Source: Treponemataceae bacterium (lineage in GTDB: Bacteria; Spirochaetota; Spirochaetia; Treponematales; Rectinemataceae). From it: a stretch of DNA of 64,000 nt. Location: positions 800,001-864,000 of the forward strand of contig CAXXVZ010000005.1 in assembly GCA_963678065.2 (NCBI GenBank), in the 5' to 3' direction. The position numbers were made by a program, and so were the translations under genes. The notes beneath the pieces were generated by a model. It saw only the letters and a list, made by a program, of their open reading frames with translations. It did no database searches and was not told the DNA's origin. Position 1 is the stretch's first letter; each line of letters begins with the position of its first letter. Shown here one piece after another: positions 422-64,000 of the stretch.

Positions 422-691
422 GATTTATAAACAATTATGTATTCGAATTGTTACTACAAATTGTTCGAGCCCGACGGCCGGAGGCCCGGGTGAGACCTAA
501 AACACTTTAGCAAGGAATCAATATTTCGCCTAACGTTTGCCTGCCTACGACGTTGTGGCGAGCATCGGCGAGCCACAATGTGCCTGAGCGGAATGAGCGA
601 CAGCGAGTGCAGCGATGGCCGAAGAAGGAGCCGAAGGCGACTGATGAGCGTGGGCAGTGCTGTTAGCCGAAGTACCAAACCTCTTACATTT

Positions 692-1135
692 TTACATTAT
701 TTCTTTAAAGTCTATATGCTTATAATAAATACTATCTAGTGCCAGTTTTATTTCTTCTTTATCAAATACATTTTCCATAATCTTATTTTTTAGAATTCTC
801 TCTATCACCTGTTTCAGATTTTTGAGATCTTCTTTGACTATTTCATACACGATATACATATCAATACCCATATAATTATGTACTACTTTATTTCTGAAGT
901 TTTTTATTATCTGCCAATTGACCTCATTGTATTCACTTTTTATTTCTTTGGTTACCTTCGAAATCCCCTCTCCAATATTTGCCAACAAATTCAATGTTGC
1001 GTTAAAATTGAGTTGATCATTTTTACTATAAAAATCTTCTGGTCCACTTGTCCCTTTTGAATAGATTCCAATTTTTTCAATAGATTCCAGAATATTCAGT
1101 AAATACAACAGATCGTTTTTTTCATTCGGTAACAT
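692..1135 (-). CDS. HEPN/DUF86 (HepT-like) RNase toxin
   Basis: FRNKVVHNY (Rx4H) motif; overlaps the upstream MNT gene. Confidence 0.88.
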   Translation of the reverse strand: MLPNEKNDLLYLLNILESIEKIGIYSKGTSGPEDFYSKNDQLNFNATLNLLANIGEGISKVTKEIKSEYNEVNWQIIKNFRNKVVHNYMGIDMYIVYEIVKEDLKNLKQVIERILKNKIMENVFDKEEIKLALDSIYYKHIDFKEIM

Positions 1136-1445
1136 ACCGCATATCCTTCTGAGCCCTGTGCAGAATAATGGGATTTGCGTATTTTTTTAGTACCACATCA
1201 ATTCTAGTTTTAAACTCTTTTTCAAGTTCTGATTGAAGTTCAAGAAGTTTTTTATACTCCACAATATCTTCATCGATAAACAGGTCAATATCGTTGAATC
1301 GCTCACCGCGGGCAAATGATCCAAACACACCTATTTTCTTGAATCCATATTTCTTAAGAATGTTTTTATCACGAAGAGTCTTTTCAAATCCTTCGAACGT
1401 AGTGATGCCCATGTTCATAGTATACCCAATCACCAGAGTGGCCAC
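1122..1445 (-). CDS. Minimal nucleotidyltransferase (MntA-like) antitoxin
   Basis: GVFGSFARGE..NDIDL motif. The true start may be a downstream Met. Confidence 0.88.
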   Translation of the reverse strand: MATLVIGYTMNMGITTFEGFEKTLRDKNILKKYGFKKIGVFGSFARGERFNDIDLFIDEDIVEYKKLLELQSELEKEFKTRIDVVLKKYANPIILHRAQKDMRYVTE

Positions 1446-1659
1446 AAGATACTACAAAATCATGCATATTATTATATAGCAGTTATTTACTATATCTTGG
1501 TTTGGTATTTCGGCTAACGTTCGCCTGCCTACGACGTTGTGGCGAGCATCGGCGAGCCACAATGTGCCTGAGCGGAACGAGCGCATGCGAGTGCAGCGAT
1601 GGCCGAAGAAGGAGCCGACAGGCGACTGATGAGCGTGGGCAGTGCTGTTAGGTGAAGTG

Positions 1660-2001
1660 TTAGGGGCGACACTTCTCTACCAAATTTTCTATCTTTTTCT
1701 TAAGCTCGGGGATCTTTGAAACAGCAACGTCCCATACCAAGGAATAATCAACCGAAAAATAGCCATGTATTAGCTTGTCTCTCATCCCTGCCATATTTCT
1801 CCATTCTATTTCTTTGTTATTTAGTACTATTTCATTACTCAGGTTTTTGACTGCTTCTCCAATAATTTCCAAACATCGGGCAAAAGCCCGTTTCAATGTT
1901 TCATTTTTCAAAAACTCTTCTTTCGTTATTCCTTGCGTATGTTCTACCATAAAATCCATTTCATCTTGTATATGGAAAAGTAATTCTATGTCAGAACGCA
2001 T
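1660..2001 (-). CDS. HEPN/DUF86 toxin
   Basis: LEIIGEA and GMRDKLIHGY motifs. Confidence 0.92.
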   Translation of the reverse strand: MRSDIELLFHIQDEMDFMVEHTQGITKEEFLKNETLKRAFARCLEIIGEAVKNLSNEIVLNNKEIEWRNMAGMRDKLIHGYFSVDYSLVWDVAVSKIPELKKKIENLVEKCRP

Positions 2002-2296
2002 AATATTCTACCTCATTCAATATATGAGGTCCAATATACGGACTCAATGATTCTGGTGTTATCACATCCACTTTTCTATTCGTATTATCCTCTATAAAAT
2101 ACGTTAATCCTATATAGTTATCATAATTCTTCTTTTCAGGATCAAATTCCACAAGAAGATCTATATCACTTTTTTCTTTTTGGTCATTTCTGACAAAAGA
2201 GCCAAATAGACCGATCTTAGTAACTCCATATCTTTTAATGAGATATTTATTGTCGATGAAAAAGTCTATCAAGTCTTTTTTTGTTGCTACAGTCAT
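1991..2296 (-). CDS. Minimal nucleotidyltransferase antitoxin
   Basis: GLFGSFVRNDQ..SDIDLLVEF motif. Confidence 0.92.
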   Translation of the reverse strand: MTVATKKDLIDFFIDNKYLIKRYGVTKIGLFGSFVRNDQKEKSDIDLLVEFDPEKKNYDNYIGLTYFIEDNTNRKVDVITPESLSPYIGPHILNEVEYYAF

Positions 2297-2600
2297 GATA
2301 ATCCGTATTCTAGCCTAGATTTTCCAGAAAGACAAACCCTTTACTCCACGATCTTCGCCCCTAACATTTCACCTAACGTTTGTGCCTACGACGTTTTGGC
2401 CCGCATCGGCGGGACAAAATGTGCCTGAATGGAACGAGCGTATGCGAGTGGAATGAAGGCCGAAGAAGGAGCCACAGGCGACTGATGAGCGTGGGCACGG
2501 TGTTATCTGATTTTTGAACGCGCTCTTCTCTTCCATCTTCCCATTTTTAAAACTTTTCTTCCTCTTCATTTCTTCATTTTAAAATTTTGAATTCCTATCT

Positions 2601-3146
2601 TCATTTCCTATTTTTAACCCATTCTTCTTTTATAATTCCAAATACCATATCGTCTTTCCATTCATTTTGTATCAAAATACTTTTTACAAAGTATCCTTCA
2701 TTTCTGAACCCAAGATCTTTCAATAATCGTATTGACGATGTATTTTCAGGATCCACCGATGTAATAACCCTATGTTTTTTCATTGATGTAAATATATAGT
2801 CAATTATTGCCTCAACTGATTCTTTCCCGAATCCCTTATGTTGATCCTTTCTCCCTATTGTATACCCAATCTCACATTGTTGATTTTCCGGATCCAAGAA
2901 ATGAATTCCAATATCCCCAATAATTGTATCTTCACAATAGATTCCAATTTGAAACCATGTATTCACAACATTGAAGAATAGAGAATTATTTTTAATAAAT
3001 ATTTTGACATCATCGATAGTCGTAGGTTTGAAGGACTGAAACTCCATAATTGAAGGATCAGATCGGTATTCAAACATTTTCAGAGAATCTTCCAGAACAA
3101 TATCTTTCAAAACCAAACGATTTGTTCGAATGTTAATATAACCCAT
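2601..3146 (-). CDS. GNAT N-acetyltransferase (RimJ/RimL type), copy 1
   Basis: CEIGY, QHKGFG and N..S..LL..LGF..EG motifs. True ATG is at 3146; the longer ORF start lies inside the ISL3. Confidence 0.9.
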   Translation of the reverse strand: MGYINIRTNRLVLKDIVLEDSLKMFEYRSDPSIMEFQSFKPTTIDDVKIFIKNNSLFFNVVNTWFQIGIYCEDTIIGDIGIHFLDPENQQCEIGYTIGRKDQHKGFGKESVEAIIDYIFTSMKKHRVITSVDPENTSSIRLLKDLGFRNEGYFVKSILIQNEWKDDMVFGIIKEEWVKNRK

Positions 3147-3157
3147 TGTCTTTTTCC

Positions 3158-4431
3158 GGCTCTTCGCTGTTTCATGTGGGTAACTGCCCCAGTTTACCGG
3201 CGACAATGTAGGTCATGATCTTGAGATTTTTGATAGTTCGGAATCCTCTGGCTCTGGTCTTTGCTGACTGAATCAGACTATTCAACGATTCAAGAAGCCC
3301 ATTTGTCACTCCGGATGTAAGCCACCGAACGACTCCATTCCAGTGTCGTTTGAGCATCGCAGCAAAATTGATGATTGGGGTAAGCTGTGATCGTGTTGCC
3401 CATACTCTCCATTTTTTAAGTTCTTCTATGGCTCGAGAAGCCGAGAATTCGAAAAGTCCCTTGAAAATGTTCATCATTCGCCATGCTCGCCCTGTTTTTA
3501 ACTGTAATCCTGACAAGGTGTTGAGACGGGCCAAATTCTTAACCGACAGATTGTAGGGGTTGCTCAACCAGACATATTTCGAACCTCTGAGTACCGTTTC
3601 CATCGTTGATTCTTCTTTCCGCACGTCGTTGACTGCTTCACCCAGAAGCTTCATGACATGAAACCGATCAAACGTGAGAGCAGCCTGGGGAAGATGCTCT
3701 TCGATCCCGGACATGAACGCCGGCGACATATCGGTACAGACCGTCCGTGATAGCAGTTTTCGAGCCTCCATGGGCTTCCAGATGCTCTGTAAAGGCTTTT
3801 ATAGTGGATGCATCCTTGCCTTCGGTCACATATATGGCTTTCCCTGTATCGAGATCGGCCACAACGGTGATGTATGAGTGTCCGCGTTTGGCTGCTGTTT
3901 CGTCGATTCCGATTCGTGTGGTTTTCGATAAATCTTGTGTAGCCACGTCTTCGGAAACATAATGGTCCATAATTCGCCACACTCGCGTATCGGTGGTAGC
4001 TGTCAGTCTGGAAACTGCCTTGACGCTCATTTCCTTGACCATGATCATCATGAGGGCTTCGTACAGCAGGGTAAATCCCGATCCTTTACGCGCCCACGGG
4101 ATATCAATCAGATGAACGCCATGCTCAGGACAGTCTATCCGCGGAACTCGTGCATGCAGATAGGCTTCATGCTGGAAAAAATTGAGGTGACGCCATGTTT
4201 TGGGCATCGTATCGTAGGCTGTACCCTTGTAATCGCAGGAAAAACACGGAAAACGACTCCCGGGCTTGAACCCAAGCTGTATATCAAGCCGATGTTCTGT
4301 TGGTTTGAACTCTATGTTCTCAACAATCCAGGGTTCAGATAATCCAAGCGCAAGGGCGAATAGTTCTACGTCTTTCATGCTGCTCATCCTACCATGCTTC
4401 CTTGGTTACCCACACGATTCGTTGAAGAGCC
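3158..4431 (-). mobile_element. ISL3-family IS (1274 bp), transposase frameshifted
   Basis: GGCTCTTC...GAAGAGCC ends and 8-bp target duplication CTTTTTCC. ORFs 3668-4387 and 3172-3771 carry a CxxC finger, GIDE, DMS, FDRFHV and KxxARGFR. Confidence 0.93.
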
Positions 4432-4588
4432 CTTTTTCCTGATCTCGCGCGTTCAAATTTCAGATAACGTTTTGTGCCTACGACGTTTTGGCCCGCATCG
4501 GCGGGACAAAATGTGCCTGAGTGAAGTGAGCGCATGCGAGCGCAACGAAGGCCGAAGAGCCCGAACGGGCGATGAGCGTGGGCACGGT

Positions 4589-4726
4589 GTTAGCTACAGT
4601 CGTGTTCTTCAGCGCGCTTTGATTTTCGGACTGGATGTCCGAAAATCAAATCAGTGACATCTTGCGCGCCTCTTACTCTTCTCTTAACCCTTATTTCTTT
4701 CTTCTCTTTACACGATTGTAGCTAAC
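4589..4726. other. Gene-less structured mini-cassette, family B (1 copy)
   Basis: 17-bp terminal IR, GCGCGC stem, perfect 14-bp hairpin tttgattttcggac-tggat-gtccgaaaatcaaa, pyrimidine tract. Confidence 0.88.
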
Positions 4727-4852
4727 GTTCTGCCTGTTTGCGACGATGGCGTGAGCATCGGCGAACGCCATTGTGCCTGAGCGGAATGAGCGTTAGCGAG
4801 TGCAGCGAATGGCCGAAGAGGGAGCTTGCGACCGATGAGCGTGAACAGCGCT

Positions 4853-4986
4853 GTTAGTTGCAGTCGTGACCTTCGAGCGCGCTTGGATGGGGAGACTTGT
4901 CTCCTCATCCAATACTCTATCTTGCGCGCGTTCTTCTCTTCCTCTTCTCTTAACCCTTATTTTTTTCTTTCACGATTGCAACTAAC
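4853..4986. repeat. Gene-less structured mini-cassette, family A (1 of 18)
   Basis: gttagttgcagtcgtga...tcacgattgcaactaac with an internal ttggatggggagac/gtctccYcatccaa hairpin. Confidence 0.92.
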
Positions 4987-5543
4987 GTTCGCCTGCCTAC
5001 GACGTTGTGGCGAGCATCGGCGAGCCACAATGTGCCTGAATGGAACGAGCGTGAGCGAGTGCAATGAAGGCCGAAGAAGGAGCCGACAGGCGACTGATGA
5101 GCGTGGGCAGTGCTGTTATATGCTGTACGCCGCCATCTTCAACCTTTTCCATTTTTCTTTCTCTTCACTGCTTCATACGTTCCTTTTTTTGGGTTTCCTA
5201 TTGTTTTTATTGATCTATTCAATACTCGCAAAGCTATTTTTTTACCATTTCAAAATCATTTTTTTGCCGTACATATTTGCTACTATACCTAAGGACATTT
5301 TACATGCCATGCTTCAACTTCATTATGCCATTACGATTATACTGAGATCGTATTCCTAACCATGACAAAATGGAATATTTTGAGTATGCATATTTTTTCT
5401 ATTCCACAATTCTTATTCATGGACTTATGATTCACTATTCTGAACCTCTTATTTTTTGTCAGTACCCCAGATTCACCGTTACTGCATTTATTCCCGTACT
5501 ATGATACTTTTTATTAATGACGGTACAATGGTAATTGTTCCCT

Positions 5544-5879
5544 CTATACCTTGTTTCGTTTCACTTTTTTGGGCTTCGGTTCGGGTAATTCATTGGCGGT
5601 TATCAGTATCAAATCTCGTATCCATTCCCTATCGTCAAATTTGTCTTTTATCAGAAAACTCATTCGTGCTCCTACATATGCAGGAGCTTCCGTTACATCC
5701 CCAATATAGGATCTCCCTTTTTCGGTAGGTTTTACATACAGTTGATTATCACAGATAAGGGCTACTACTTTACCATTACAATACAGTGCATATTCTCCAA
5801 ACATTTTTCGGTAGGTAATTGTCCCAGCACTTTCTATTTGATCAACAATATACTCAACAAAGTCTTGATCAGATGACAT
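5544..5879 (-). CDS. TfoX/Sxy N-terminal domain protein
   Basis: RKMFGEYALY..GKVVALICDNQLYVK motif. Confidence 0.9.
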   Translation of the reverse strand: MSSDQDFVEYIVDQIESAGTITYRKMFGEYALYCNGKVVALICDNQLYVKPTEKGRSYIGDVTEAPAYVGARMSFLIKDKFDDREWIRDLILITANELPEPKPKKVKRNKV

Positions 5880-6110
5880 TGGTATCCTCTCTTTTCTTTG
5901 GCGGCGTATTGCATATAACGTTTCCGGCCTGCGACGTTTGCGACCGCATCGGCGGGCCGCAAATGTGCCTGAATGGAACGAGCGTATGCGAGTGCAATGA
6001 AGGCCGAAGAAGGAGCCAAAGGCGACTGATGAGCGTGGGCCGTGTTGTTATCTGATGTTTGAACGCGCTCTCCTCTTCAATCTTCCCATTTTTAAAACCT
6101 TTCTTACTCT

Positions 6111-6692
6111 TCATTTCTTCATTTCAAAATTTTCAATTCCTATCTTCATTTCCTTATTTTTAACCCATTCTTCTTCCAAAATTCCAAATACCATATCGTC
6201 TTTCCACTCATTTTGTATCAAAATACTTTTTACAAAATATCCCTCATTTCTGAACCCAAGATTTTTCAATAATCGTATTGATGCTGTATTGTCTGGATCT
6301 ACTGACGCAATAACCCTGTGTTTTTTCAATGATATAAATATATAGTCAATTAGTGCTTGAACGGATTCTTTCCCAAATCCCTTATGGTGATCCTTTTTCC
6401 CTATTGTATAACCAATTTCACATTGTTGATTTTCTGGATCTATAAAATGAATCCCACTATCTCCAATAATTGTATCTTCATAATAGATCCCAAGCTGAAA
6501 CCAGGTATTTCCAACATTGAAGAATAATGTGTTATTTTTAATGAATGATTCCACATCATCAATGGATGTAGGTTTGAAGGACTGAAACTCCATAATTGAA
6601 GGGTCAGATCGGTATTCAAACATTTTCAGAGAATCTTCCAGAACTATATCTTTCAAAACCAAACGGTTAGTCCGAATGATAATATAACTCAT
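6111..6692 (-). CDS. GNAT N-acetyltransferase (RimJ/RimL type), copy 2
   Basis: Close paralog of 2601-3146. Confidence 0.9.
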   Translation of the reverse strand: MSYIIIRTNRLVLKDIVLEDSLKMFEYRSDPSIMEFQSFKPTSIDDVESFIKNNTLFFNVGNTWFQLGIYYEDTIIGDSGIHFIDPENQQCEIGYTIGKKDHHKGFGKESVQALIDYIFISLKKHRVIASVDPDNTASIRLLKNLGFRNEGYFVKSILIQNEWKDDMVFGILEEEWVKNKEMKIGIENFEMKK

Positions 6693-6910
6693 TGTCTTTT
6701 CCCTGATCTCGCGCGTTCAAATTTCAGATAACGTTTGCCTGCCTACGACGTTTTGGCCCGCATCGGCGGGACAAAATGTGCCTGAGCGGAATGAGCGCAA
6801 GCGAGTGAAGCGAATGGCCGAAGAAGGAGCCGAAGGCGACTGATGAGCGCGGGCAGCGCTGTTAGCCGAAGTACCTTGGTTTCAAGGTAGTATGCCGGTT
6901 TTTAACGTTA

Positions 6911-9214
6911 TTAATTTGTTAAATCCAGCAAGGATAAGTCATATTTTGCTAATGCACTATAATAACTCATTCTTCCACTTTTTCTATATTCAGTATCATC
7001 TTCAAAAATATCATCATATATTTGCATATAAATATTTTTCTCTTTTTTGACACCAATTTTTTGATAATAATCAGCATAATATTTTACACGAATTAAATAT
7101 TCACTACCTAATTCATTATAGATATTACCAAGATCTTGAATATTTATTGCCAATACAGCAAGATTTGATAAATTTGTTTTTCCATCTGTAGCACTTTCAA
7201 GCAAATATTCTTTAAACTGTTTCGTATTACTTGTTTTACTATAATATGGTTCCATATTTTTAATAACTTTCCCTAAGTTTGTTTTAAAATCTTTAGCGAT
7301 ATTTATCCTAATTAAAATATCATCATATGCTTGCCTAGATAATGAGATATGCTCAATTGTTTTTGATTTCGATATTTCATTAAAAACTAACTTCGCTAAA
7401 CTACCAATTGCTGCAGGTAAAAATTGTACTAATACATCATTTTGAGTATACGCCTTATCAGCATTATTAAAAAGAGGGAGAATTAAACTTGTAGCGCTGC
7501 CAATTAGCAATGAAACATCACCTAATCTATCGTAATTATTTCTTATTAATTCACGAGGCTCTTTCAAAAGTCATGAGATGAACGAATTTTAATGAAAAGC
7601 GGGGACAGAACCTGTATGATGATGTTGCAACACAAACGTCACCAGGAGGAGCCCCCGCTGATGAAAACCATACCAGAAATACTGGGCGGAGCGCAAATAC
7701 TTTTGCCGATTTCCTACGATATCCAGCGATGTTTCGAAGAATATCTCACCGACGAGCATCGCTTTTTTATCGCCCTGCTCAGAGTCATTGAAGATGCTCA
7801 GCCACGGATTACATCACCATGTGCACGGACTGGCCGTCCTCCACATCGGAACGAACCGATCATGCGGGCGTTTTTCGCCCGAACGGTATTCCACATAGCG
7901 ACAGTCACGGACCTTAGGAACAGGCTGATCAACGATCCGAATCTGCGGAGGATATGCGGCTTCACCTCCGTTCCAAGCTCTGCGACCTTTTCGCGTCGCT
8001 ACGCGGAGTTTTCAAAAAAGACTCCGCTGATTCAGACTTTGAATACCATGGTGAAGGATTGTCATGACGGCCATATCGTCGGACACATAAATCGGGATGC
8101 GACGGAGATACGAGCACGAGAAAAACCTGTACCTGCCAAACGTGAAGCTGTTTCTTCCGTGACACCGCAACGGAAACGAGGTCGTCCCCGAAAAGGAGAA
8201 GTTCGGCCTGTGAAGGAGCCGACACAGATAGAAAAGCAAGTCGGCCAAAGCGTCAGGAAATCCTTGTCAGAACTATCCAAAGACTGTGCATGGGGATGCA
8301 AGAAGAACAGCCAGGGGAATAGGGAAACATGGAAAGGATACAAGTTGCACCTTGATGTCAGCGACACAGGATTCCCTATTTCAGCAGTCGTAACCGGCGC
8401 CAATGTTCATGATTCGCAAGTAGCGATTCCTCTGGAAAAGATAACAGAGAAAAAGGTCCGACATCTGTATTCAGTCATGGACGCTGCATACGATGCGGAT
8501 CCCATCGCGACCTATATCCAGGGACGTGGGCGTGTTCCGCTGATTGATCGGAATACGCGTCGTGGGACGGAACGGGAACCATTTTCGCCGTCACAGAAGG
8601 AGCGGTACACAATCAGGACAACGGTTGAACGTGCAAACTCGCATTTGAAGGATTGGCTCATACCGGGTCAGATATTTGTACGGGGATTTGAGAAAGTATC
8701 ATTCCTGCTCATGTGCGGGGTAGTGGTTCTGGCGGCCGTCAAGGCTTTGCAGTACTTCATCCTTCCCGAACTGCAGAAATCGTAACCGGGCAATCCGGCA
8801 GAACCGGATTTTGTAGGGGTAGTCCATCTTTTGCACTGAAAAGAGAGCCCTTTTTACTGCACATGTAATTTTTACTGTGCAAAAACGAAGCTTCAGTTAC
8901 AATAACTCGCTTTTTTACAAAGCGGATTACGAAGTTTTGAAAAAGCCTCTCACTATTAAATATATTGAGCTCTTTATTTAGAGCTATTTCGTAAGAGCCA
9001 TATCGAAAACCATCGTAAACTCCAACGAGGTAATTATTAGTATTAGTTATTAAATCTTTTAATAACTCAATTTTTTCTCCTTTCGCTTTTGCATTTCTTG
9101 CCAAATCGAACCACTCACTATACGATTGTACATTTGAAAATTTTATTTTTGGAAATGTTGTTGGAATAACATTTTCAGAAACTATTGTAAAACAAAATAA
9201 GAACAACATAGTAG
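6911..9214 (-). pseudogene. Hypothetical exported protein, interrupted by an IS5/IS1182-like element and 5'-truncated by IS1634
   Basis: Removing 7555-8949 and one TCAC rejoins ...IFNSE/LIRNNYD... in frame. The remaining N-terminus abuts the IS1634 end. Confidence 0.75.
7555..8949 (+). mobile_element. IS5/IS1182-like DDE IS (1395 bp), copy 1; transposase 7592-8785
   Basis: TIR GAGGCTCTTTCAAAA / TTTTGAAAAAGCCTC and TSD TCAC. Motifs DAT, GYKLHL, DAAYD and RTTVER. The exact family is uncertain. Confidence 0.9.
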
Positions 9215-53676: not shown

Positions 53677-53926
53677 TCACTTCTCCAATATAACAATAAC
53701 TATAATAACCAATATTTACAGTGCAAGCCATCCCTCTCTTCTGGGCGGTATTGCACCTAACGTTCGCCTGCCTACGACGTTGTGGCGAGCATCGGCGAGC
53801 CACAATGTGCCTGAATGGAACGAGCGCATGCGAGTGCAATGAAGGCCGAAGAAGGAGCCGCAGGCGACTGATGAGCGTGGGCAGTGCTGTTATGCGCTGT
53901 TGCATTATTTTCCCATATTCAACATC

Positions 53927-54403
53927 TTATGTTTTATTCCTATTTTCATATTCTTTTATCTCTTCTACCCTTTTCTCAAATAATTCCTTATGCCACTTCA
54001 TATGCCTGAAATAATCTTCAACAAGATAGTTCAAACTTTTTCCTTCATCGTTTATTTTCCAATAATTCTTCATATCTTCATCTTTAATGTTTTTAATTAT
54101 ATACACTATAAATACATTATAAGATTTCCAGAATGATACGAGAAACTCGTAATCCATTCTTCCAATATCTGATACGTTTTTCCACTCTTCCTCATTATAT
54201 CCTGGAAATTCTATTGTTTGGTTTATCTGAAGACGGATGAACCTCTGATGATTGTTTGATGCGGAATCTATCAGATGTCCAACCATCTCCTGTAATGTCC
54301 ATTTATTCGTTTCAATACGCACAGATGCACTATCCTTATACTGAAGCATTACGACCTGGAATTCATTGATAAGGTTTTCATAATGTTGAATAGCAAATGG
54401 CAT
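53927..54403 (-). CDS. DinB family protein
   Basis: KW...E.VGHLIDSASNNHQRFIR and DY.RHM.WH motifs. Confidence 0.9.
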   Translation of the reverse strand: MPFAIQHYENLINEFQVVMLQYKDSASVRIETNKWTLQEMVGHLIDSASNNHQRFIRLQINQTIEFPGYNEEEWKNVSDIGRMDYEFLVSFWKSYNVFIVYIIKNIKDEDMKNYWKINDEGKSLNYLVEDYFRHMKWHKELFEKRVEEIKEYENRNKT

Positions 54404-54965
54404 ATTTCTCTCCAGATAAAGCTTTTAATCGTGATTCCTAAATCATAGCACAAAATTCTTTAATTCATTTCATACATACACGATAGCAAAATATCAAACA
54501 CGGAATAAATACGTACTGAATCATGGTTTTCAGATCTTAACCCTGAGATCTTCAATACCCGGGTACGAGACATCATGACGTGTACAATGACAAAAACACA
54601 AAATGGCTACAATTCTTATTTAGCTTCTTGCCATGATAGTATTGTTACAGTTTATTCTTCAAATAATGCAATTGCGCATAACGTTTGCCTGCCTACGACG
54701 TTGTGGCGAGCATCGGCGAGCCACAATGTGCCTGAATGGAACGAGCGTATGCGAGTGGAGTGAAGGCCGAAGAAGGAGCCGAAGGCGACTGATGAGCGTG
54801 GGCAGTGCTGTTAGGCGACGTGTTGTTTTGCGTTTCTTCAAAATACACAATTACGTTGATACAGTTGTCAGATGTATTTTATCTACTGCTTTGCTGTTAC
54901 CTAAAAATGGGGACTATATCATAAATGATTTCCTACTGATGTTTTAGTCTAATCAATGCTTGAAG

Positions 54966-55499
54966 TCATCTAAACATACTATGCTGTACAATAAGCTTCT
55001 TTATTGGCCTAATAGTTTTTAGTGCCCAGTCATAATGGCTGGATGTTGCTGATACTAGATATGCACCTAACGATGTTGTTCCTGTCCATGCGTACTTTTT
55101 CTTAGTAAATAATTCATCATCACTATGTTTTTGTATTATTTCTATCATTTCTTTATGACTTTTCTTTACTAGCTTTATTGCTTCATTTAATTCTGTTCCT
55201 TTATACTTTTCATAAATTCTATGATTTAGGACAGGCAAGGTTTGCCAGGTAACATCTTCTGCCGGAATAGCTGGCTTCTTGCCGGACATTCCAATTTTAT
55301 ACCAATTCTTCATCATCGAATGCCATTCATGTAAATGACAAATCACATCAGCTATTGTCTTATCTCTATCATTGAGTTCATTATTTTCGTATGATTTAAC
55401 TTGATATTCTTTGGGTAGCGATTCAATGAACGCTAATAGTTTTGTAATGTTTTCATCGCCAAGCGACACTAGCTCTGCTTTGTTGGTTGGTCTAGGCAT
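54966..55499 (-). CDS. ClbS/DfsB (DUF1706) family protein, copy 2
   Basis: Near-identical cassette to 39222-40053. Confidence 0.85.
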   Translation of the reverse strand: MPRPTNKAELVSLGDENITKLLAFIESLPKEYQVKSYENNELNDRDKTIADVICHLHEWHSMMKNWYKIGMSGKKPAIPAEDVTWQTLPVLNHRIYEKYKGTELNEAIKLVKKSHKEMIEIIQKHSDDELFTKKKYAWTGTTSLGAYLVSATSSHYDWALKTIRPIKKLIVQHSMFR

Positions 55500-55770
55500 G
55501 TAATTCTCCTAAATTAATTCGCGCCAAAGGCGTCCTGTTAACAGCATTTACCGTGATACATATAAACCTATTTGTATAAGTGGTAAAACACTAAAATGGT
55601 AATCTCTGGAAGGATCGCGCAAAACAATATGTCGCCTAACGTTTTGCCTGTTTGCGACGATGGCGCGAGCATCGGCGAGCGCCATTGTGCCTGAGCGGAA
55701 TGAGCGCATGCGATGCGAGTGCAGCGATGGCCGAAGAGGGAGCTTGCGACCGATGAGCGTGAACAGCGCT

Positions 55771-55902
55771 GTTAGTTGCAGTCGTGACCTTCGAGCGCGC
55801 TTGGATGGGGAGACTTGTCTCCTCATCCAATGCTATATCTTGCGCGCGTTCTTCTCTTCCTCTTCTCTTAACCCTTATTTTTTTTTCACGATTGCAACTA
55901 AC
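55771..55902. repeat. Mini-cassette family A
   Basis: Near-identical to the other copies. Confidence 0.92.
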
Positions 55903-56046
55903 GTTCGCCTGCCTACGACGTTGTGGCGAGCATCGGCGAGCCACAATGTGCCTGAGCGGAACGAGCGCATGCGAGTGCAGCGATGGCCGAAGAAGGAGCC
56001 GATAGGCGACTGATGAGCGTGGGCAGTGCTGTTATGTGCAGTTGCT

Positions 56047-57222
56047 CTAATCCACCATTCCAATACTTGTACAGGAATTAAATCTACAAAACCTTTCAAA
56101 ACAGGTGTTGAGAGCATCACGCAGTCGCTTGTTTTTCTTTACTCCATCCTCATACCAAAGATGCTTCACTTCAAGTGTTTGACTTTTCTTATTGTTGACT
56201 ATTTCAGCCCTGCCAATAAACCGATCTCCTGATACGATCGGTACTACATAATAGCCATATACTCGTTGTTTCTCGGGTGTATAGATTTCCCACTTGTATT
56301 CAAAATCAAAAATGCACCGTATCAGTTTTCTGTCCCATAATAAATTATCAAGAGGCGCAAGCAATTCTGTCCGCTCCTCAAAACCATCAGTATGTACTGC
56401 CGATTCCACTAATGTGCTATCTGATTTTAGGCAATAGAGCTTTTCTTGTATCCCTTCAACAGAAATTTCCATAATCATTTCTTCATCCAGTAGCTGCCCG
56501 AAAACGATATCGCGTTCACCACTTTTGAGATTCCGTATATTCAAATATGCATCAGATGCTTTATTCCATAGCATTCCAACCGACGATATTCTTCTGAGAA
56601 CCCGCCATTTCATATGACTTAGTTCCTCTTTTAATGGATCCTCTGCCTGAAGTATCTCATGTGGAATATAATCTTCTGAGCATGCGTAATACTTTATTGA
56701 GCCCTTTTTATGATGGATTATCAGATCCCCACGAAAATATAAGGTTTCGAGCGCTGCTCGTGCAAGATTTGTGCTGGACCAATACCAATCTACCTTATGC
56801 TTCAGGTCAAAGTCTTTTGAGCACACCGGACCCTTTTCTTTTATTGTCTGGATTATGGTATCGGCAACTGTTTTCACCTCTTCATAACCTCGTCCATTTT
56901 TCCGATGGGCTTCACGTATTCGTTCAAAATACTTCCAATCACTCAGTTGTATGATCGAAAGATTTTTATCAAAATAATCAACTAATTCCCTATCCTCATA
57001 CAAAAGTTCATACAACATTGACTTGGTAAAGCCTTCTACTCTGGACTGGAGGACCAGTTCTGCATTTTTCCCACATATATCAATAGGATCAAATTGGATA
57101 CAGCCGGCCTGACGTACAAAATCAATGATACCGTGCTTTAGTGAGAACCTGTAGGTACCACATAATCCATGCTTCAGCAAAAGGAACTGGCGTGCTTGCT
57201 GTTTTGACAGTGTTTTCTGCAT
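56047..57222 (-). CDS. YcaQ/AlkZ-like (HTH_42) winged-helix DNA glycosylase
   Basis: IQFDP (QxD), LLAPLDNLLWDR and F.Y.WEIY.P...R.YGYYV.P motifs. Start reassigned to MQKTLS. Confidence 0.9.
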   Translation of the reverse strand: MQKTLSKQQARQFLLLKHGLCGTYRFSLKHGIIDFVRQAGCIQFDPIDICGKNAELVLQSRVEGFTKSMLYELLYEDRELVDYFDKNLSIIQLSDWKYFERIREAHRKNGRGYEEVKTVADTIIQTIKEKGPVCSKDFDLKHKVDWYWSSTNLARAALETLYFRGDLIIHHKKGSIKYYACSEDYIPHEILQAEDPLKEELSHMKWRVLRRISSVGMLWNKASDAYLNIRNLKSGERDIVFGQLLDEEMIMEISVEGIQEKLYCLKSDSTLVESAVHTDGFEERTELLAPLDNLLWDRKLIRCIFDFEYKWEIYTPEKQRVYGYYVVPIVSGDRFIGRAEIVNNKKSQTLEVKHLWYEDGVKKNKRLRDALNTCFERFCRFNSCTSIGMVD

Positions 57223-57455
57223 GTACTTTCCATGATAACTGCTGATTAGAGCAATTGCACATAACGTTTTGTGCCTCTGACGTGTGCGACCGCACAGGCG
57301 GGCGCACATGTGCCTGAGCGGAATGAGCGCAAGCGAGTGCAGCGATGGCCGAGGAGCCATGAAATGGCGACGAGCAGGGGCACGGTGTTAGGCGCTTTTA
57401 TTTTTTTCTTAATTCAACTTCTCTGTAAAAACATAATGTATTTATAAATATTTCA

Positions 57456-58247
57456 TCAAACTTCCCAACATTTATCCACAATTTCTTTATCCCAAATCTT
57501 TAGCTTTTCTCCAAATAATGATAATAAACAGTGAAAAAATGTAGAAGCATTGCTGAATACATTCCCAATATCGAATTCATCTGTTTGAAGTGTCCATATC
57601 ATTGATTCTTGATTGATTCTCAAAAACCTGTCAATTTCTTCAATATCACCATGAACAAATGATGATAAAAAGGTATAAAAATAGTCATATGATTCAAGAT
57701 GATCTACATTTTCCGCCATTTCTCTGATACTTTTACCAGACCAATTAGAAAATTCTATATTTTTACCTTTTCTAGTTTTTCTAGAATAATTTCCAATTAC
57801 TTCTTCATATTCCCTGTCTATTGTCTCTTTTTCATCATCCCAACAGTCATCCCATTCCATATTTAATGCATATTTCCAGTCTTCCTTTTTAGTATTTAGA
57901 TGTTTTTTACATACCTCCATTCGATTTTTTTTTATGACCTTTTTATAGAAAATATATTGCCTAGATCGTTCTGTAGGCCTTTCAGAAATATAATGGGCAT
58001 TTATGTCAATTTCCAGCATTGATCTGCACATAACATATCCGACTGTTGACGGATAATATTGTGGGTTTACACTATCGTAAAGCCTTATTAATGAATTTGA
58101 TATTGATAATTCCTGCAATAAAAAGCAAATCATTATTGATTTATATGAAATGTTCTCAGTTTCAATACGCTTTATATCAACATTTTTACCAATTTTTATA
58201 AGATTTTTTAAGACAGAAATATGTTGTTCAAATGTAAGTGCTTTCAT
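57456..58247 (-). CDS. DUF5677-like (HEPN-related) hypothetical protein
   Basis: CRSMLE, WSGKSIREMA and Y..LSSFVHG motifs. Confidence 0.7.
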   Translation of the reverse strand: MKALTFEQHISVLKNLIKIGKNVDIKRIETENISYKSIMICFLLQELSISNSLIRLYDSVNPQYYPSTVGYVMCRSMLEIDINAHYISERPTERSRQYIFYKKVIKKNRMEVCKKHLNTKKEDWKYALNMEWDDCWDDEKETIDREYEEVIGNYSRKTRKGKNIEFSNWSGKSIREMAENVDHLESYDYFYTFLSSFVHGDIEEIDRFLRINQESMIWTLQTDEFDIGNVFSNASTFFHCLLSLFGEKLKIWDKEIVDKCWEV

Positions 58248-58432
58248 GTTTTTCCTAATTGTATGTTTGGCAAACAAGATAAAGCTAAAAAAATAATTGC
58301 GCCTAACGTTCTGCCTGTTTGCGACGATGGCGTGAGCATCGGCGAACGCCATTGTGCCTGAGCGGAATGAGCGTATGCGAGTGTAGCGATGGCCGAAGAG
58401 GGAGCTTGCGACCAATGAGCGTGAACAGCGCT

Positions 58433-58565
58433 GTTAGTTGCAGTCGTGACCTTCGAGCGCGCTTGGATGGGGAGACTTGTCTCCCCATCCAATACTATAT
58501 CTTGCGCGCGTTCTTCTCTTCCTCTTCTCTTAACCCTTATTTTTTCTTTCACGATTGCAACTAAC
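58433..58565. repeat. Mini-cassette family A
   Basis: Near-identical to the other copies. Confidence 0.92.
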
Positions 58566-58778
58566 GTTTTGTGCCTCTGACGTTTCGGACCGCATCGGCG
58601 GGCCGAAATGTGCCTGAGTGGAGTGAGCGTATGCGAGCGGAACGATGGCCGAAGAGCCCTGAAAGGGCGATGAGCAGGGGCACGGTGTTAGCTGCAGTGC
58701 AAATTGCCTTCAGGAAGACGGAGTTTCACAGGTTGAAAGTTCGATGTTAATCCATAGTTCTTTATTTATTCAAATCTA

Positions 58779-59462
58779 CTACTTTATAAACAGGATACTT
58801 CTGTAATCACTATTATGCGATGTACTTCGATGTATTAAGACACTACTATTTTTAATCTCAATACTATGTCCGGCTTTACCGAGAAAACCGTTCATTATTT
58901 TTAATATTTTATCATTATTCGTACAAATTTGAAAGCCGCTCTTTTCAATACACTTTATTACATTTACTAAAGAAGGATCTACTTCAATAACCCATCTATT
59001 TTTTTTGCTTGCAGTAAGCAAGATAAGCATTCGTGTTAGCAGGCTTTGCTTACTAAGAATGAATTTTTTGCTAATGCCGCCCTCTAGAATTTTTGACCAA
59101 AACTCTCCATCAATCTCAATGTAATCGCTGAAAATATTATATCCGCACATGCGCGATAATAAATAGTATATTTGGATACGCTTCATAGGAATATCATAGT
59201 AAGGGTTATTACAGGACTGAACCCATTCATCTATAGGTACAGTTGTGCCGTATTTGCCATATATTTCAAGATACATGCTATATATATGCATTCTTTCATT
59301 TTTTGATAACTGGCCAAAGCAAATAATACGCGAGCTTTCTATTATCGATCTTTTCATAACTGGCTGTAATAATATATTTATCATTTGTTGTAGTAGGAAA
59401 ACAAAAAATATGCAAGAGAATTCGCCACTAATATTATTAGGTAAAACATTAAGTTGTGCCAT
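58779..59462 (-). CDS. Hypothetical protein, weak GNAT-like features; start uncertain
   Basis: Second gene of a two-gene cassette; C-terminal IEKSGF. Confidence 0.55.
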   Translation of the reverse strand: MAQLNVLPNNISGEFSCIFFVFLLQQMINILLQPVMKRSIIESSRIICFGQLSKNERMHIYSMYLEIYGKYGTTVPIDEWVQSCNNPYYDIPMKRIQIYYLLSRMCGYNIFSDYIEIDGEFWSKILEGGISKKFILSKQSLLTRMLILLTASKKNRWVIEVDPSLVNVIKCIEKSGFQICTNNDKILKIMNGFLGKAGHSIEIKNSSVLIHRSTSHNSDYRSILFIK

Positions 59463-59845
59463 CTATCTTTTTTGAAAATCAGTCTTAATATTTTTCTTAT
59501 AGAAGGTGCCCTAATAACGTGTCCCAAACCAAACTCGTATGGGTATACTGCATTAACGTTTCCTTTTATCGAGTTTTGTATCATATCTTCTAGTTTATAC
59601 GTTCTCATAATTGCATCTTCCTGGAAGCATTTCCAAGAGTATTCCAAAAAAATGAAACAGAAGATGAGAAAGTAATTGGTTAACAAAATAGTTGCCTTGT
59701 TCTCTGAAACAGCATATGCAATGATCGCAGATGATGTAGCCACTGCTAGGTTCCTAATAGAAAAAATGTACTGATCCATTCGAGAAATGAAGTCTTGAGT
59801 AGAATGATAATCCTCAAAGGCTATGTCTAGGGTATCCATATTCAA
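59381..59845 (-). CDS. Hypothetical 3-TM membrane protein
   Basis: GGAGG RBS upstream; hydrophobic segments. Confidence 0.7.
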   Translation of the reverse strand: MNMDTLDIAFEDYHSTQDFISRMDQYIFSIRNLAVATSSAIIAYAVSENKATILLTNYFLIFCFIFLEYSWKCFQEDAIMRTYKLEDMIQNSIKGNVNAVYPYEFGLGHVIRAPSIRKILRLIFKKDRWHNLMFYLIILVANSLAYFLFSYYNK

Positions 59846-60201
59846 AGTAGTAACCTCCTAAATGTGGGGTTTATTAGAATTAACATTGATTTATTACTTC
59901 GGTACATTCCCTATATTTCGTCCAAAAACAAACGTCAGCTGCTGTTATCAATTTTTCGGAGCAATTTGCATTGCAGCTAACGTTCGCCTGCCTACGACGT
60001 TGTGGCGAGCATCGGCGAGCCACAATGTGCCTGAGCGGAACGAGCGCATGCGAGTGCAGCGATGGCCGAAGAAGGAGCCGCAGGCGACTGATGAGCGTGG
60101 GCAGCGCTGTTAGGCGACGTTGTTCTGGGCGCTCTCCCTACCCTTTCGTTTGTATCGTCCTCGTCACGATGGCGAGGATGTTCAGTATTTATACAGTTCC
60201 T

Positions 60202-60774
60202 TTAGTTTACTCGATATTCCCTACCCGAACTCCATCCCTGTCCTAGTTCCTTTCCAACTTCACAATACCTATTTTCTAAACCTAAAAAACACAGCGGATT
60301 CATTTTTCTACTATCGATCCTTTTATCATCAGATACATACTCCTCATTAATATATACTTGAACAACTTCTCCAAAATAAACCCTATCCATAGCAAATTCC
60401 ACTACTTTATCTATGAACCTACATTCACATGTAATCGGAAATTCCTGAATCATTGGAGCCGTTCCTAATTCCCCATAAAATGAAGTAAATATTTTTGATT
60501 TACTGGTTTTCCTTCCACTCACAAGACCACAAAAATCTGTTTCGACAACATACTCCGCTGATGGAAAATTGATACTGAATGTTTTGTTTTCAATAATTCC
60601 CTCAGAAGTATAGTGATTTCTATTTATACTTATATAGACAATAGCTGGATTACTATTCACTCCATTCGTAAATCCTATCGTTGCATAATTAGGCTCATTT
60701 TCGATGTTTGTACCAACGAGTGCTATAGGAGCAATTGGAAAAGGAATAAACGCTCCAGTCTTAATCTTATTCAT
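60202..60774 (-). CDS. Flavin reductase family protein
   Basis: P.ALVG, FSINFP, DFCGLVSGR and APMIQE.P...EC motifs. Confidence 0.9.
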   Translation of the reverse strand: MNKIKTGAFIPFPIAPIALVGTNIENEPNYATIGFTNGVNSNPAIVYISINRNHYTSEGIIENKTFSINFPSAEYVVETDFCGLVSGRKTSKSKIFTSFYGELGTAPMIQEFPITCECRFIDKVVEFAMDRVYFGEVVQVYINEEYVSDDKRIDSRKMNPLCFLGLENRYCEVGKELGQGWSSGREYRVN

Positions 60775-61236
60775 TGAAGTACTCTCCTTGCAGTGTTTGC
60801 GGATCATGAACTGCTAATGAGATACTTCAGTATACTAAAACATTTGTCAAACCTTTTTTTAAACTTATTCTATTTCATTATCCTCAATAGATTAGAATGA
60901 TTCGTATACAACTCGAATTGTGGTATGCAGCCCGCTAGGACGGCTGGCTGTTGCAAAGACTGCGCCCAGAATAATGTCGCCTAACGTTCGCCTGCCTACG
61001 ACGTTGTGGCGAGCATCGGCGAGCCACAATGTGCCTGAGTGGAACGAGCGCATGCGAGTGTAGCGATGGCCGAAGAAGGAGCCAAAGGCGACTGATGAGC
61101 GTGGGCAGTGCTGTTAGGCGAAGTATGGATTCCCTTTTTTGCATCTTTCTCCGCGCCGAACGCCCGGAGGGCGAGGTGCGGAGATGCCCTTATACTATTA
61201 CCCGATAGACTAAAGAACATTAAGTAATTTTTCAGT

Positions 61237-62970
61237 TCACGTATTTACCAAATATCCCTTTCTTACACATTCATCTATTAAATACTTGAAAAAGTCCCAT
61301 ATTTCTTCTGAACCTTCTGCTATATGTTTATTCTTTTCTAGAATCATACTCTTCGTAATTCCATTTTTCTTCCAAGTATATCCTTCGGTTTTATAGTTCT
61401 GTAATACTGGTTCCAGTCTATCAAATACCGCTGCGTATTTAGATTCATTCGTTTTTCGTTTCTCAAATTCATTCCACAATTCATATAATTCTTTTGTTTG
61501 ATCCTCTGGAAGTATTCCAAAGATTCGTTTTGCAGCGAGTTCTTCTCTTGCATGTGCTGAATCACGTTCGTGTGAATATAAGAATGTATCCCCAGCATCA
61601 ATTTCTACAATGTCATGAACTAGTGTTCCGTCTTTTACAGATTGCCTAATAGCCCTTGGCAGTTGCAATGCTCGAAGAAATTTGTTCAGCAGATTTTACC
61701 CATTTGAATTTACGACCTGATGTATTCCAGCCTTTGATGAAATCGTCTATCGCCTTTTCAAGTTCATCAACACTGGTCCAACTATCGCGCCGAATTCGCT
61801 TAGTGGTGATTTCTCCAAACCAGCGTTCAACAAGATTCAGCCATGAAGAATGTGTCGGTATGAAGTGCTCAACAAATCGACCATTCATCGAATCCAGATA
61901 TTTCCTGACCTCTTGAGTTTTATGTGCAGAATAATTATCCGCAACGATATGAAGCGTCTTTCCCTTAGGGCTCTTGCGATTGACCATCTTCAAGAAAGAA
62001 ATATAGTCAGCTGCCTTGTGTTGTTCCTTGCAGTCGCCGATTACTTTCCCGCTCACGACATTTAATGCTGCAAAAAGCGTTGTTGTACCATGGCGATAGT
62101 AGTCGTGAGATTGACGTTCAGGAACACCGGGAAGCAACGGTAGAATCGGCTGCGATCGCTCTACGGCTTGAATCTGTGATTTCTCGTCCACACAAAGAAC
62201 TATCGAGTTCTCGGGAGGATTGAGATACAAGCCGACGACATCTTCCAGCTTCTTTTCAAAATCAGGATCGGTGCTGAATTGAAAATGCTTCACCAGATGG
62301 GGCTTTAGTCCTCGTTCGCGAAGAATGGTATTCACCGAGGAATGCCCTATGCCAAGTTTTTTTGCCAACTCTCTCGTACTCCAATGCGTTCCCTGTTCAG
62401 GTTTTTCATTGCAGACAAGCGTACAAAGCTCATTCTTTACTTCGATTGGAATTGGCTGTTTCCCTGGTTTTCTTGTTTTGTCAGTGAGTAAGGACTTTAA
62501 TCCGCCCTCATTGTACCGGTGGACATACCGGCTCACCGTGACATTATTAATCCCAAGAAACGCTGCTGTGTCGTTCGTTGATCGGTTATGGGCTCTGCTT
62601 AGGACGGTTTGAAGACGTACAGCATATTTGTGCTGAATATCCCCGATAGCTAAAATCTTTTCCATAAGGATAACGTCTTCTTTGGTCGTGTTCGGTTTTA
62701 CTTCTTTCGCCATGTGGTAAGTATAGCATACTTTTATTAGGTTGTCTGTATTGGACAGTACACTAGTAGCATTACTATCACTTTTTCTATGTTTATGGTT
62801 GTATTTGAGTATTCTTTTAGTAGAATAGCCATTATGCAGATTGTCCAAGAGTGCTCAGCATCATTTTCAAATCGAGAAGAATCAAAGAGTTTTGATTTTC
62901 TAATTATGCTTTTGACCTTATCTACTTCGAATATGAAATTGAGTTGTGTTTCAAATCTATTTCTGTCCAT
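61237..62970 (-). pseudogene. HD-domain hydrolase interrupted by IS630
   Basis: ENDAEHSW...MLLV/HDIVEIDAGD rejoin in frame once the IS is removed. Confidence 0.9.
61623..62763 (-). mobile_element. IS630-family IS; transposase ends at 61646
   Basis: VDEKSQIQA, DNYSAHK and SWLNLVERWF motifs; ~26-bp TIR; TA duplication at a CTAG site. Confidence 0.93.
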
Positions 62971-63244
62971 ATATTCCCCAAATCACAAATATCCTATCTA
63001 TTTTTTATTTTCTACATATGCGCGAGCCCGACGGCCGGAGGCCCGGGCGAGCTCTACTACAAACAGATGCAGGGAATCCATATTTCGCCTAACGTTCGCC
63101 TGCCTACGACGTTGTGGCGAGCATCGGCGAGCCACAATGTGCCTGAGCGGAATGAGCGACAGCGAGTGGAGCGATGGCCGAAGAAGGAGCCGAAGGCGAC
63201 TGATGAGCGCGGGCAGTGCTGTTAGCTGATGTGTCTGCGCGATC

Positions 63245-63637
63245 TTACTCTATCCAATTCTCTATTCTTAACTCTTTTATCTCTTTATAATGTTTCATAT
63301 TCCCTGTAATTAATCGATTGCATTCGACTAATGCACATGCTGCCACAAATATATCTGCATCTTCTTGTCGTTTACCTTTTAACTCCAATTTCCCTTTCAG
63401 TTCCCCAAACTTTTTACATATCCTCATATCTGATTCGATGATATTTACACTTAATAAAAACTTTTCCACCACTATTTTCATCTGTTCTTGTAGTTTCGAT
63501 TTTTCTGCACCATAATACAATTCTGCAACTGTTATAAACGATACTGCGACAGCATCATTGACTACTTTCCGATGTTCAAGAACTTTTTCATTCCCATGCA
63601 ACAATTCCACACAAACATCGGTATCTAAAAGAATCAT
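63245..63637 (-). CDS. vapC: VapC/FitB PIN toxin
   Basis: ILLDTD, AELYYGA, D.FVAA.A and ITGN..HY motifs. Confidence 0.92.
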   Translation of the reverse strand: MILLDTDVCVELLHGNEKVLEHRKVVNDAVAVSFITVAELYYGAEKSKLQEQMKIVVEKFLLSVNIIESDMRICKKFGELKGKLELKGKRQEDADIFVAACALVECNRLITGNMKHYKEIKELRIENWIE

Positions 63638-63912
63638 AGATCAACCTTTCTTCCCTTAGTACGACGTGTATAGATATCAGTTATTATTTCATCTGAACTC
63701 CGTCCATCGTTCCATTTTCCACAGACATCATTCCAGATACTCAGTTGCAGTTCTTTATCGTATATCATCATAGGCTTTTGATCATAGCATTTCAGGCCAT
63801 TTTCCAGGATCATGAGAATCTCATTATTTAAGCTTCGGCGTTCTACTTCAGAGAGGACTCTGATCTTATCAAGAATCATATCGGGAATATTTCGTACTGT
63901 TAAGCTTGCCAT
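63634..63912 (-). CDS. FitA-like RHH/Arc antitoxin
   Basis: MASLTVRNIPD....RRSLNNEIL.IL motif. Confidence 0.88.
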   Translation of the reverse strand: MASLTVRNIPDMILDKIRVLSEVERRSLNNEILMILENGLKCYDQKPMMIYDKELQLSIWNDVCGKWNDGRSSDEIITDIYTRRTKGRKVDL

Positions 63913-63932
63913 ATAATAACCACCATAGTTTT

Positions 63933-63961
63933 ATTATAGTTCCAGGGTATCTGATTGTCAA
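63933..63961 (-). promoter_or_regulatory. Consensus sigma70 promoter of the fitAB-like cassette
   Basis: TTGACA-17-TATAAT. Confidence 0.85.
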
Positions 63962-64000
63962 GATTCTTCGCGCAGACATTTCAGCTAACGTTTTGCCTGT

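Follow-up and report, generated by a model that had tools for sequence, protein, structure and literature searches.

Complementary cassette ends beside a non-IntI tyrosine recombinase in a 177-kb integron-like array of a spirochaete

The systems closest to the locus described here are the sedentary chromosomal integrons, especially the same-direction ('inverted integrase') type of Treponema (PMC3607928, PMC4889954) and superintegrons on the scale of those of Vibrio. The locus is a 177-kb array of about 172 cassettes in the genome of a Treponemataceae bacterium (GTDB Rectinemataceae; GCA_963678065.2, here G000), which is assembled in five contigs, and it occupies G000:C5:754682-931570 (C5 being CAXXVZ010000005.1). 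The stretch under analysis, referred to as the window, consists of the 64,000 nucleotides at C5:800001-864000. Coordinates without a prefix are positions in the window.

Treponema has been called the sole spirochaete clade with integrons (PMC3607928). In the integron field, the I2 helix specific to IntI is held to be necessary for single-strand cassette recombination, and forms intermediate between Xer and IntI are described as lacking (PMC7790495). The CTX phage integrates as a folded single strand that mimics dif, using Xer enzymes without I2 (PMC7790495), and by analogy it would be the nearest described mechanism to the one proposed below. The authors of IntegronFinder encountered 21 non-IntI recombinases near attC sites, four of them between IntI and Xer, and dismissed them (PMC4889954), and a recombinase survey includes an 'integron-like' subgroup in which the insertion is incompletely conserved (PMC8138268); the supplementary trees of both papers may include members of the recombinase family treated here. 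Cassette formation is listed as an open question (PMC8618304).

Complementary cassette ends and their sites

The array is built on a ~133-bp element, of which a profile search of the genome found 177 copies between C5:754682 and C5:931442, on a single strand throughout, and one partial match elsewhere. These site copies define 172 intervals between usable site ends, 62 of them in the window, where 58 of the 62 cassettes have their longest open reading frame (ORF) on the minus strand. Repeat copies of one cassette have similar elements after the gene (identity 0.93), whereas the elements before the gene are only as similar (0.83) as random pairs (0.83). A cassette is therefore composed of a start arm, a gene, an end arm and its own site and, since the cassettes lie on the minus strand, the high-coordinate arm is the cassette start; it is the arm that includes an invariant A. 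The array starts at C5:931570, where the first start arm has no 133-bp element before it. Copies of the same cassette were found beside different neighbours, as expected for mobile units. The array has in common with integrons that its cassettes start at G|TT, include a gene and their own site, are co-oriented and change places.

A first-pass annotation of the window had proposed that nearly every cassette has complementary ends of ~20 bp, and the five end pairs it quoted were located exactly. Taking as a match at least 11 of 16 positions (arm positions 5-20), such ends were found in 167 of 172 intervals array-wide and in 59 of 62 in the window, and the mean complementarity of all 172 intervals is 13.2 of 16. 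Removal of the five low intervals and merging of near-identical arms reduced the remaining 167 to 79 arm families, whose true left/right pairings have a mean of 14.08 as compared to 6.37 ± 0.21 (maximum 7.27) in 10,000 shuffles. These shuffles, together with the recurrence in other genomes described below, rule out chance or an assembly artefact. The proportion of paired bases is 89-100% at positions 5-9 and 12-20, 75% at position 21 and 57% at position 22, and from positions 23-24 it is about that of shuffled pairings; the complementary arm is ~21 bases long. A recurrent wobble or mismatch that had been noticed at positions 10-11 is present throughout: position 11 is mismatched in all 79 families and position 10 in 46 of them. 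The base at position 11 is A in the start arm, and in the end arm G in 70 families and T in nine, never forming a Watson-Crick pair. Among the five low intervals one consists of two cassettes around a damaged site, and another has arms that match with a one-base shift. The description of the arms as private and GC-rich holds in part. One arm is common to the 51 copies of an ORF-less cassette, and another to four cassettes whose genes are unrelated; the arms are GC-rich on average (74% at positions 5-9 and 51% at 13-20, versus 34% in the bodies), but some are A/T-rich.

1..64000 (-), C5:800001-864000: the window, central third of the array
662..1518 (-): example cassette, with arms at 1499..1518 and 662..681
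1499..1518 (-): start arm of this cassette, a G followed by an 11-bp dif-like half-site (TTA-KNYGM-AAT) and a cassette-specific extension
1518/1517, minus strand: putative crossover G|TT of this cassette
662..681 (-): its end arm, complementary to 1499-1518 except at position 11
531..665 (+): its ~133-bp site element, downstream of the gene on the coding strand
692..1445 (-): its cargo, a nucleotidyltransferase and a HepT-like ribonuclease (toxin-antitoxin pair)
1647..2377 (-): cassette with 23-bp arms and a second nucleotidyltransferase/HepT pair
4853..4986 (-): ORF-less cassette of the ~132-bp type, with 16-bp arms and an internal palindrome; 51 copies array-wide
5115..5919 (-): cassette with 20-bp arms and a TfoX-like gene
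48532..49236 (-): cassette with 22-bp arms and a Phd/ParE toxin-antitoxin pair
63221..63989 (-): cassette with 23-bp arms and a FitA-like/PIN toxin-antitoxin pair

In the example cassette, position 11 is a T-G wobble on the plus strand and an A-C mismatch on the minus strand. Its element (531..665) includes an asymmetric spacer, an inner stem with an invariant T-G and covarying pairs, and a branched loop, and the plus (non-coding) strand is predicted to be the best folder.

The ends had originally been interpreted within the frame of a classical integron, as extensions of the 7-bp R box, the only complementarity that the standard model was said to require. This frame did not stand: the published value for most canonical cassettes is already 9-11 nt (Bouvier et al., PMC2727003), and the present array has a recombinase without the IntI insertion, non-canonical sites and a conserved 12-base half-site. 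Bases 2-12 of the start arm are TTA-KNYGM-AAT, which is the form of the XerD arms of the Vibrio and Xanthomonas dif sites (table in PMC2731167). Judging by their sequence, the first 12 bases read as a conserved dif-like half-site and not as a private arm, and bases 13-21 appear to be a cassette-specific extension that carries no sequence information; base use at positions 13-20 is near-uniform. Tyrosine recombinases of this kind cut at the inner edge of the arm, where the G|TT junction lies. The canonical attC anatomy, with 7-bp R boxes, spacers of 5-6 nt and L boxes with one extrahelical G, was not found in the array sites. Their inner stem has eight pairs and no bulge, the fifth pair being T-G in 168 of 168 sites, and it covaries, four site types showing two-sided changes. 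On one side the spacer is mostly of 7-9 nt and on the other of 5-6 nt, the longer one belonging to the strand that would be cut. In this array 120 of 169 sites, and in relatives 56 of 74, have on the folding strand a second half-site-like motif (YGMHGT), 12-15 nt beyond the crossover; on the opposite strand it was found in 0 of the 74 sites of relatives.

Long arms are not a general attC trait: in the IntI arrays of this genome and phylum, pairing does not extend beyond position 8. Among 39 distinct cassettes of eight IntI loci, the ends are complementary in 92-95% of cases at positions 5-7 and in 74% at position 8, and are at the shuffled level from position 9; 17 loci were scanned, of which eight yielded no attC by the heuristic. 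The IntI integron of the genome itself, on contig C3 (G000:C3:97196 onward; L011:4957-15270), is canonical and same-direction, with at least eight attC sites, and in its canonical sites the arm detector described below found no pair. The C3 and related IntI cassettes begin with a conserved GAC/GAT and a small hairpin directly after the core site.

The recombinase at the array head and its relatives

The gene ahead of the first site codes for a tyrosine recombinase and is transcribed in the direction of the cassettes.

C5:931570: docking (first) site, 325 bp past the recombinase stop codon
C5:931895-933076 (-), cassette direction: recombinase gene, 393 aa, ~68 kb beyond the right end of the window

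The catalytic residues R247, K272, H336, R339, H362 and Y371 are invariant in 35 of 35 aligned relatives. The protein reached 197 bits with TIGR02249 (integron integrase), the cut-off being 265, and the IntI-specific insertion (I2 region) was not found in it: its alignment to the IntI encoded on C3 has two gaps, totalling ~40 residues, at the IntI insertion, and the corresponding segment is of 58 residues here and 58-64 in array-bearing relatives, as compared to 100 in IntI and 62-66 in E. coli XerC/D. Scores below the curated cut-offs for TIGR02224, TIGR02225 and NF040815 (214 versus 220 for the latter) indicate that it is not XerC, XerD or archaeal XerA, and the genome carries separate XerC/D-like genes. 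The AlphaFold model (pLDDT 84.6) matched XerA and IntI4 about equally in Foldseek, and therefore the fold search does not place the recombinase. In a quick tree the IntI proteins form one group (support 100) and the array recombinases a separate one (83-92), which is also apart from XerC/D; because the latter support is only 83-92, a sister relationship to IntI is not claimed. By its sequence the array is not a classical integron, its organization being consistent with integron-like working and its enzyme falling outside IntI. The N-terminal region includes a HARP-like domain (PF07443, 24.8 bits with a cut-off of 25; L009:2396-3577, residues ~10-72) that is well predicted by AlphaFold. HARP domains are single-strand annealing modules, and by analogy an annealing role would suit the pairing of the arms. 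A similar-looking N-terminal extension, judged by eye, is present in the C3 IntI.

Recombinase relatives are labelled Rectinemataceae or Spirochaetota at source. Loci with a relative numbered 143, of which 91 are distinct and have at least 900 nt downstream; 30 of these 91 have linked cassettes and 17 have two or more, for 98 cassettes versus 4 on the reverse strand, numbers that are not independent, as the genomes with relatives are related. Since the detector used for the arms itself required an A at position 11 of the start arm and paired bases at positions 4-9 and 12, only the remaining positions count as evidence. Of 91 distinct cassettes, 88 have a G at position 11 of the end arm, and 89 keep the mismatch there. 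Of the eight positions 13-20, 6.2 match in the 62 cassettes of same-phylum genomes and 4.1 in the 29 of Bacteroidota plasmids and metagenome contigs, as compared to 2.1 in shuffled pairings; in the present genome about 7.7 do. On this sequence comparison the 21-base arm is the long end of a family-wide trait. At many loci the arrays begin 56-330 bp after the related recombinase gene. A contig scan with a single protein yielded only two loci, neither with cassettes.

Some relatives have features of their own. One genome (G233; loci L072 and L178) has several recombinase copies, with a separate array for each. Short-armed arrays are present on two named Bacteroidota plasmids (L084, L085), one of which, from Chryseobacterium, has at L085:13124-13303 an empty type of cassette, with back-to-back arms, almost no body and a long hairpin. 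In plasmid pHH1107 (L083:12052-14100), and in many Acinetobacter plasmids, the start of tet(X3) lies 186 bp behind a truncated recombinase relative ('tnpF') and closely follows a half-site of the same form; the gene terminates in a partly matching end arm. From these sequences, tet(X3) looks like a former cassette of this system.

Predicted folding, proposed mechanism and alternatives

Folding was modelled in 164 cases with the ends of one cassette joined as in an excised circle. The plus (non-coding) strand is predicted to fold better in all 164, and the circle to be more stable than the array form in 146 of them (mean −11.6 kcal/mol), with position 11 mostly as a T-G wobble. The models thus agree with the proposal that the arms lengthen the stem only when the ends of one cassette meet. 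In the array the end arm faces a foreign start arm, and the classical hairpin is therefore weak. When site-cassette-site strands were folded, a cassette's own arms paired in 45 of 55, and classical outer stems were formed in 3 and 2; pairing of the own arms with the gene looped out resembles an excision-ready junction in these models. No circle junction was recognisable among the 15 listed of 67 joints, and since repeats make joints unreliable these data, taken from four contig sets of four studies over C5:914001-934000, were counted neither for nor against. The same contig sets cover the recombinase and sites and show different cassette ends at shared sites.

We consider it likely that the paired ends are the outer stem of a folded single-strand site for a Xer-like non-IntI recombinase, and that this stem is complete when the ends of one cassette meet. 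The components behind this proposal are the arm geometry, the fixed mismatch, the inner-stem covariation, the link between site and gene, the intact catalytic set, the missing IntI insertion and the recurrence beside relatives. Bases 2-12 of the start arm would be the dif-like binding half-site, and the cut would be at AA|C on the non-coding strand. The invariant T-G wobbles, at arm position 11 and inner-stem position 5, would pick the non-coding strand for folding and cutting, taking over the job that extrahelical bases and the I2 helix have in integrons. Bases 13-21, having no sequence information, would be required to pair, so that a site would be complete only if the two ends that meet are those of one cassette. 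This would happen in the excised circle, with which the double-stranded docking site would then preferentially recombine, and possibly also in the array strand with the gene looped out, in which case neighbouring sites would be joined for excision. According to the models the role in the circle is the safer of the two, and the clamp role is less certain.

Several observations weigh against this proposal, which is founded on sequence and predicted folds. No linked cassette was found at 61 of the 91 distinct relative loci, many of which are short. The arms of the relatives are of ~15-18 bases, so that the full 21 would not be required. Close cassette copies show four one-sided versus two two-sided arm changes. 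The docking site is an 11-6-11 inverted pair at only 5 of 11 positions here, and over 26 loci no spacer length exceeds an average docking-site symmetry of 4.4 of 11; a universal 11-6-11 docking site was not supported on these grounds, the clean inverted pair being seen in three close relatives (8, 10 and 8 of 11). A true full-length IntI is present on C3 of the same genome. As for the folds, the fourth arm of a four-way junction was formed in only 16 of the 55 whole-strand predictions, and the coding strand is also predicted to pair its own arms, in 41 of 55 (DNA parameters); these are equilibrium folds of ~1 kb, a weak guide to the situation in vivo.

The arms also bear on how cassettes are generated. 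Cargo homology was assessed by tblastx/blastn, which left 75 groups without detectable homology. Eight of the 2775 pairs of these groups share 9-10 of 10 extension bases, when 0.13 are expected (maximum 2 in 300 shuffles), and six of the eight belong to one set of four cassettes. Identical arms around unrelated genes are new here and provide a handle on cassette genesis. The window includes three of the cassettes concerned.

39222..40053 (-): DUF1706 gene; 22-base arms, shared with three further cassettes of unrelated cargo (C5:773261, 776443, 877698)
60109..60985 (-): flavin-reductase gene; arms and 73-90 nt of flank (83-86% identical) recur around an unrelated gene in another genome (G005)
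61113..63093 (-): member of a shell family, interrupted by a transposase gene; other members at C5:799406, 900274 and 930247

The members of the shell family have unrelated genes and conserved GC-rich REP-like hairpins just inside both arms, which suggests, as far as sequence goes, larger reusable shells; their arms differ by changes on both sides, including an inserted base, with pairing kept. Since arms and flanks recur around unrelated genes, the same cassette ends seem to be put to use again with new genes. That the cargo diverged very long ago is unlikely as the cause, the products being of different protein families, and swapping of ends between existing cassettes may account for the shared arms. 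A broader explanation, which we consider unlikely, is that the arms are a by-product of the making or replication of cassettes, one end being copied by template switching on a quasi-palindrome or a fixed shell receiving genes, and that pairing beyond the half-site does no work. The excess of shared extensions and the recurrence of shells across genomes fit this idea, and two-sided changes are explicable by copying as well as by selection. However, copying would erase the position-11 mismatch that all 79 families, and nearly all cassettes of relatives, have kept, and arm length is lineage-typical. The earlier suggestion that the arms are a footprint of cassette building gains some support from their reuse around unrelated genes, but plain copying leaves the fixed mismatch unexplained. 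Such an origin is compatible with an outer stem recognised by the recombinase, and the two could coexist.

Three other explanations appear still less probable. That the array is an unusual attC cluster served in trans by the C3 IntI, with the neighbouring recombinase as a bystander, would agree with the presence of that full IntI, with the integron-like crossover trinucleotide, strand bias and cargo, and with the conclusion of the IntegronFinder authors, who did not count the non-IntI recombinases close to attC sites as integron integrases (PMC4889954). We find it very improbable, as the C3 IntI has its own canonical array without long arms, arrays lie shortly past a related recombinase gene at many loci, and IntI above the cut-off was found in 0/5 genomes with this array type, two of them single-contig and two others incompletely covered. 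The arms could instead act in RNA, closing the transcript into a long stem for RNase III-like processing or translation control, given that they closely flank each gene and that own arms are predicted to pair on the coding strand too. This is hard to credit when the fixed wobbles are without exception T-G on the non-coding and A-C on the coding strand, ORF-less cassettes are also armed, and the start arm matches a DNA-binding half-site. Finally, the sites could be used solely as double-stranded dif-like sequences, in the manner of XerC/D on pdif modules, both arms being mere half-sites. The Xer-length catalytic domain (with the segment sizes given above) speaks for such use, and so does the report that the I2 helix is needed for single-strand activity (PMC7790495). 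Recognition as a duplex would leave two things without a reason, the covariation at sequence-free positions between ends separated by 0.1-4 kb and that of the inner stem, and we regard this explanation as highly unlikely.

The outer-stem proposal has a more speculative extension, which may be correct but which we hold only tentatively: that these arrays belong to a second widespread gene-capture family, in spirochaetes, Bacteroidota and others, which works on folded single strands without I2 and in which the ends are both a self-recognition clamp and reusable shells. For excision the clamp would assemble a four-way junction, and for integration a perfect stem.

Cargo, insertions and comparison with known systems

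The cargo is integron-like, the 51 proteins scanned including toxin-antitoxin pairs, acetyltransferases, nucleases and transposases. The 132-bp ORF-less cassette represents almost a third of the array, has a 30-nt internal palindrome and often forms tandem runs, and a copy of it occupies the first place at the docking site; it may be a spacer, a promoter or a selfish unit. Two further ORF-less types, of 138 bp, are located at 4589-4726 and 16638-16775. In the cassette at 32791-33837 the genes for a MarR regulator and an acetyltransferase are opposite to the array and the arms are in normal orientation. An IS21-family element is repeatedly inserted within the 133-bp sites or at their edges (22896-25337 and 35431-39154 in the window; C5:761855-764298 and 788044-790480), and cassettes are interrupted by ISL3, ISAzo13-type and other DDE transposases. 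Such arrays also contain reverse transcriptases of group II introns (G000:C5:773261-776315; L085:18747-20063; L086:8708-9988), and in plasmid L086 the intron is reversed and at an end arm, as in group IIC-attC introns.

A published description of these arrays or arms was not found in the open-access literature, most subscription papers being outside that coverage, nor in the accessible parts of PMC11194056, PMC8352920 and PMC5737381. The DUF1874 motif, an attC-like arrangement without a described integrase in the accessible text (PMC5737381), was considered and set aside, no Rfam match tying it to the array; an Rfam search of window positions 1-20000, with E up to 0.1, gave no match.

If the proposal is true, a 177-kb array run by an I2-less enzyme would be a living counter-example to the need for I2, missed by IntI-keyed searches. 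The long paired ends allow a simple mutate-and-compensate test of strand and direction choice, and the origin of cassettes becomes testable by comparison where identical ends enclose unrelated genes. As relatives of the enzyme lie beside resistance genes such as tet(X3), the system may explain the first gathering of such genes. Were the wider family to be real, it would expose cassette birth and a step between Xer and IntI.

With integrons the array shares a recombinase followed by one docking site and a long co-oriented array, the G|TT junction, a site that follows the gene and a non-coding strand that is predicted to fold, as well as toxin-antitoxin, acetyltransferase and ORF-less cargo and the presence of insertion sequences and group II introns. 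It differs from them in the lack of the IntI insertion, in 11-bp dif-like half-sites where integrons have R and L boxes of 7 bp, in end pairing of ~21 nt as compared to the canonical 9-11 nt (PMC2727003) and 8 nt in the IntI control, and in having fixed T-G wobbles and, on the strand to be cut, a longer spacer in place of the canonical extrahelical G. The XerD-like 11-bp arms, the Xer-length catalytic domain and the predicted use of a folded strand as a duplex site are features in common with XerC/D-dif and CTX. Unlike XerC/D-dif, the array has a single recombinase of its own, which includes an additional N-terminal domain, and 177 sites as opposed to one chromosomal dif. In the pdif modules of Acinetobacter plasmids, accessory genes lie between complete 28-bp duplex sites in alternating orientation and the host XerC/D are used. 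The present array likewise has accessory genes bounded by dif-like sequences, but its sites are split between the cassette ends and the 133-bp hairpin and have one orientation. The 'TnpF/XerD' genes found beside tet(X) and other resistance genes in Bacteroidota and Acinetobacter (PMC11194056) belong to the same recombinase family, with 43-48% identity. The accessible text of that paper treats them only as a mobile-element marker and describes no cassette sites or arrays; the genes beside them directly follow a half-site of the same form as that of the array.

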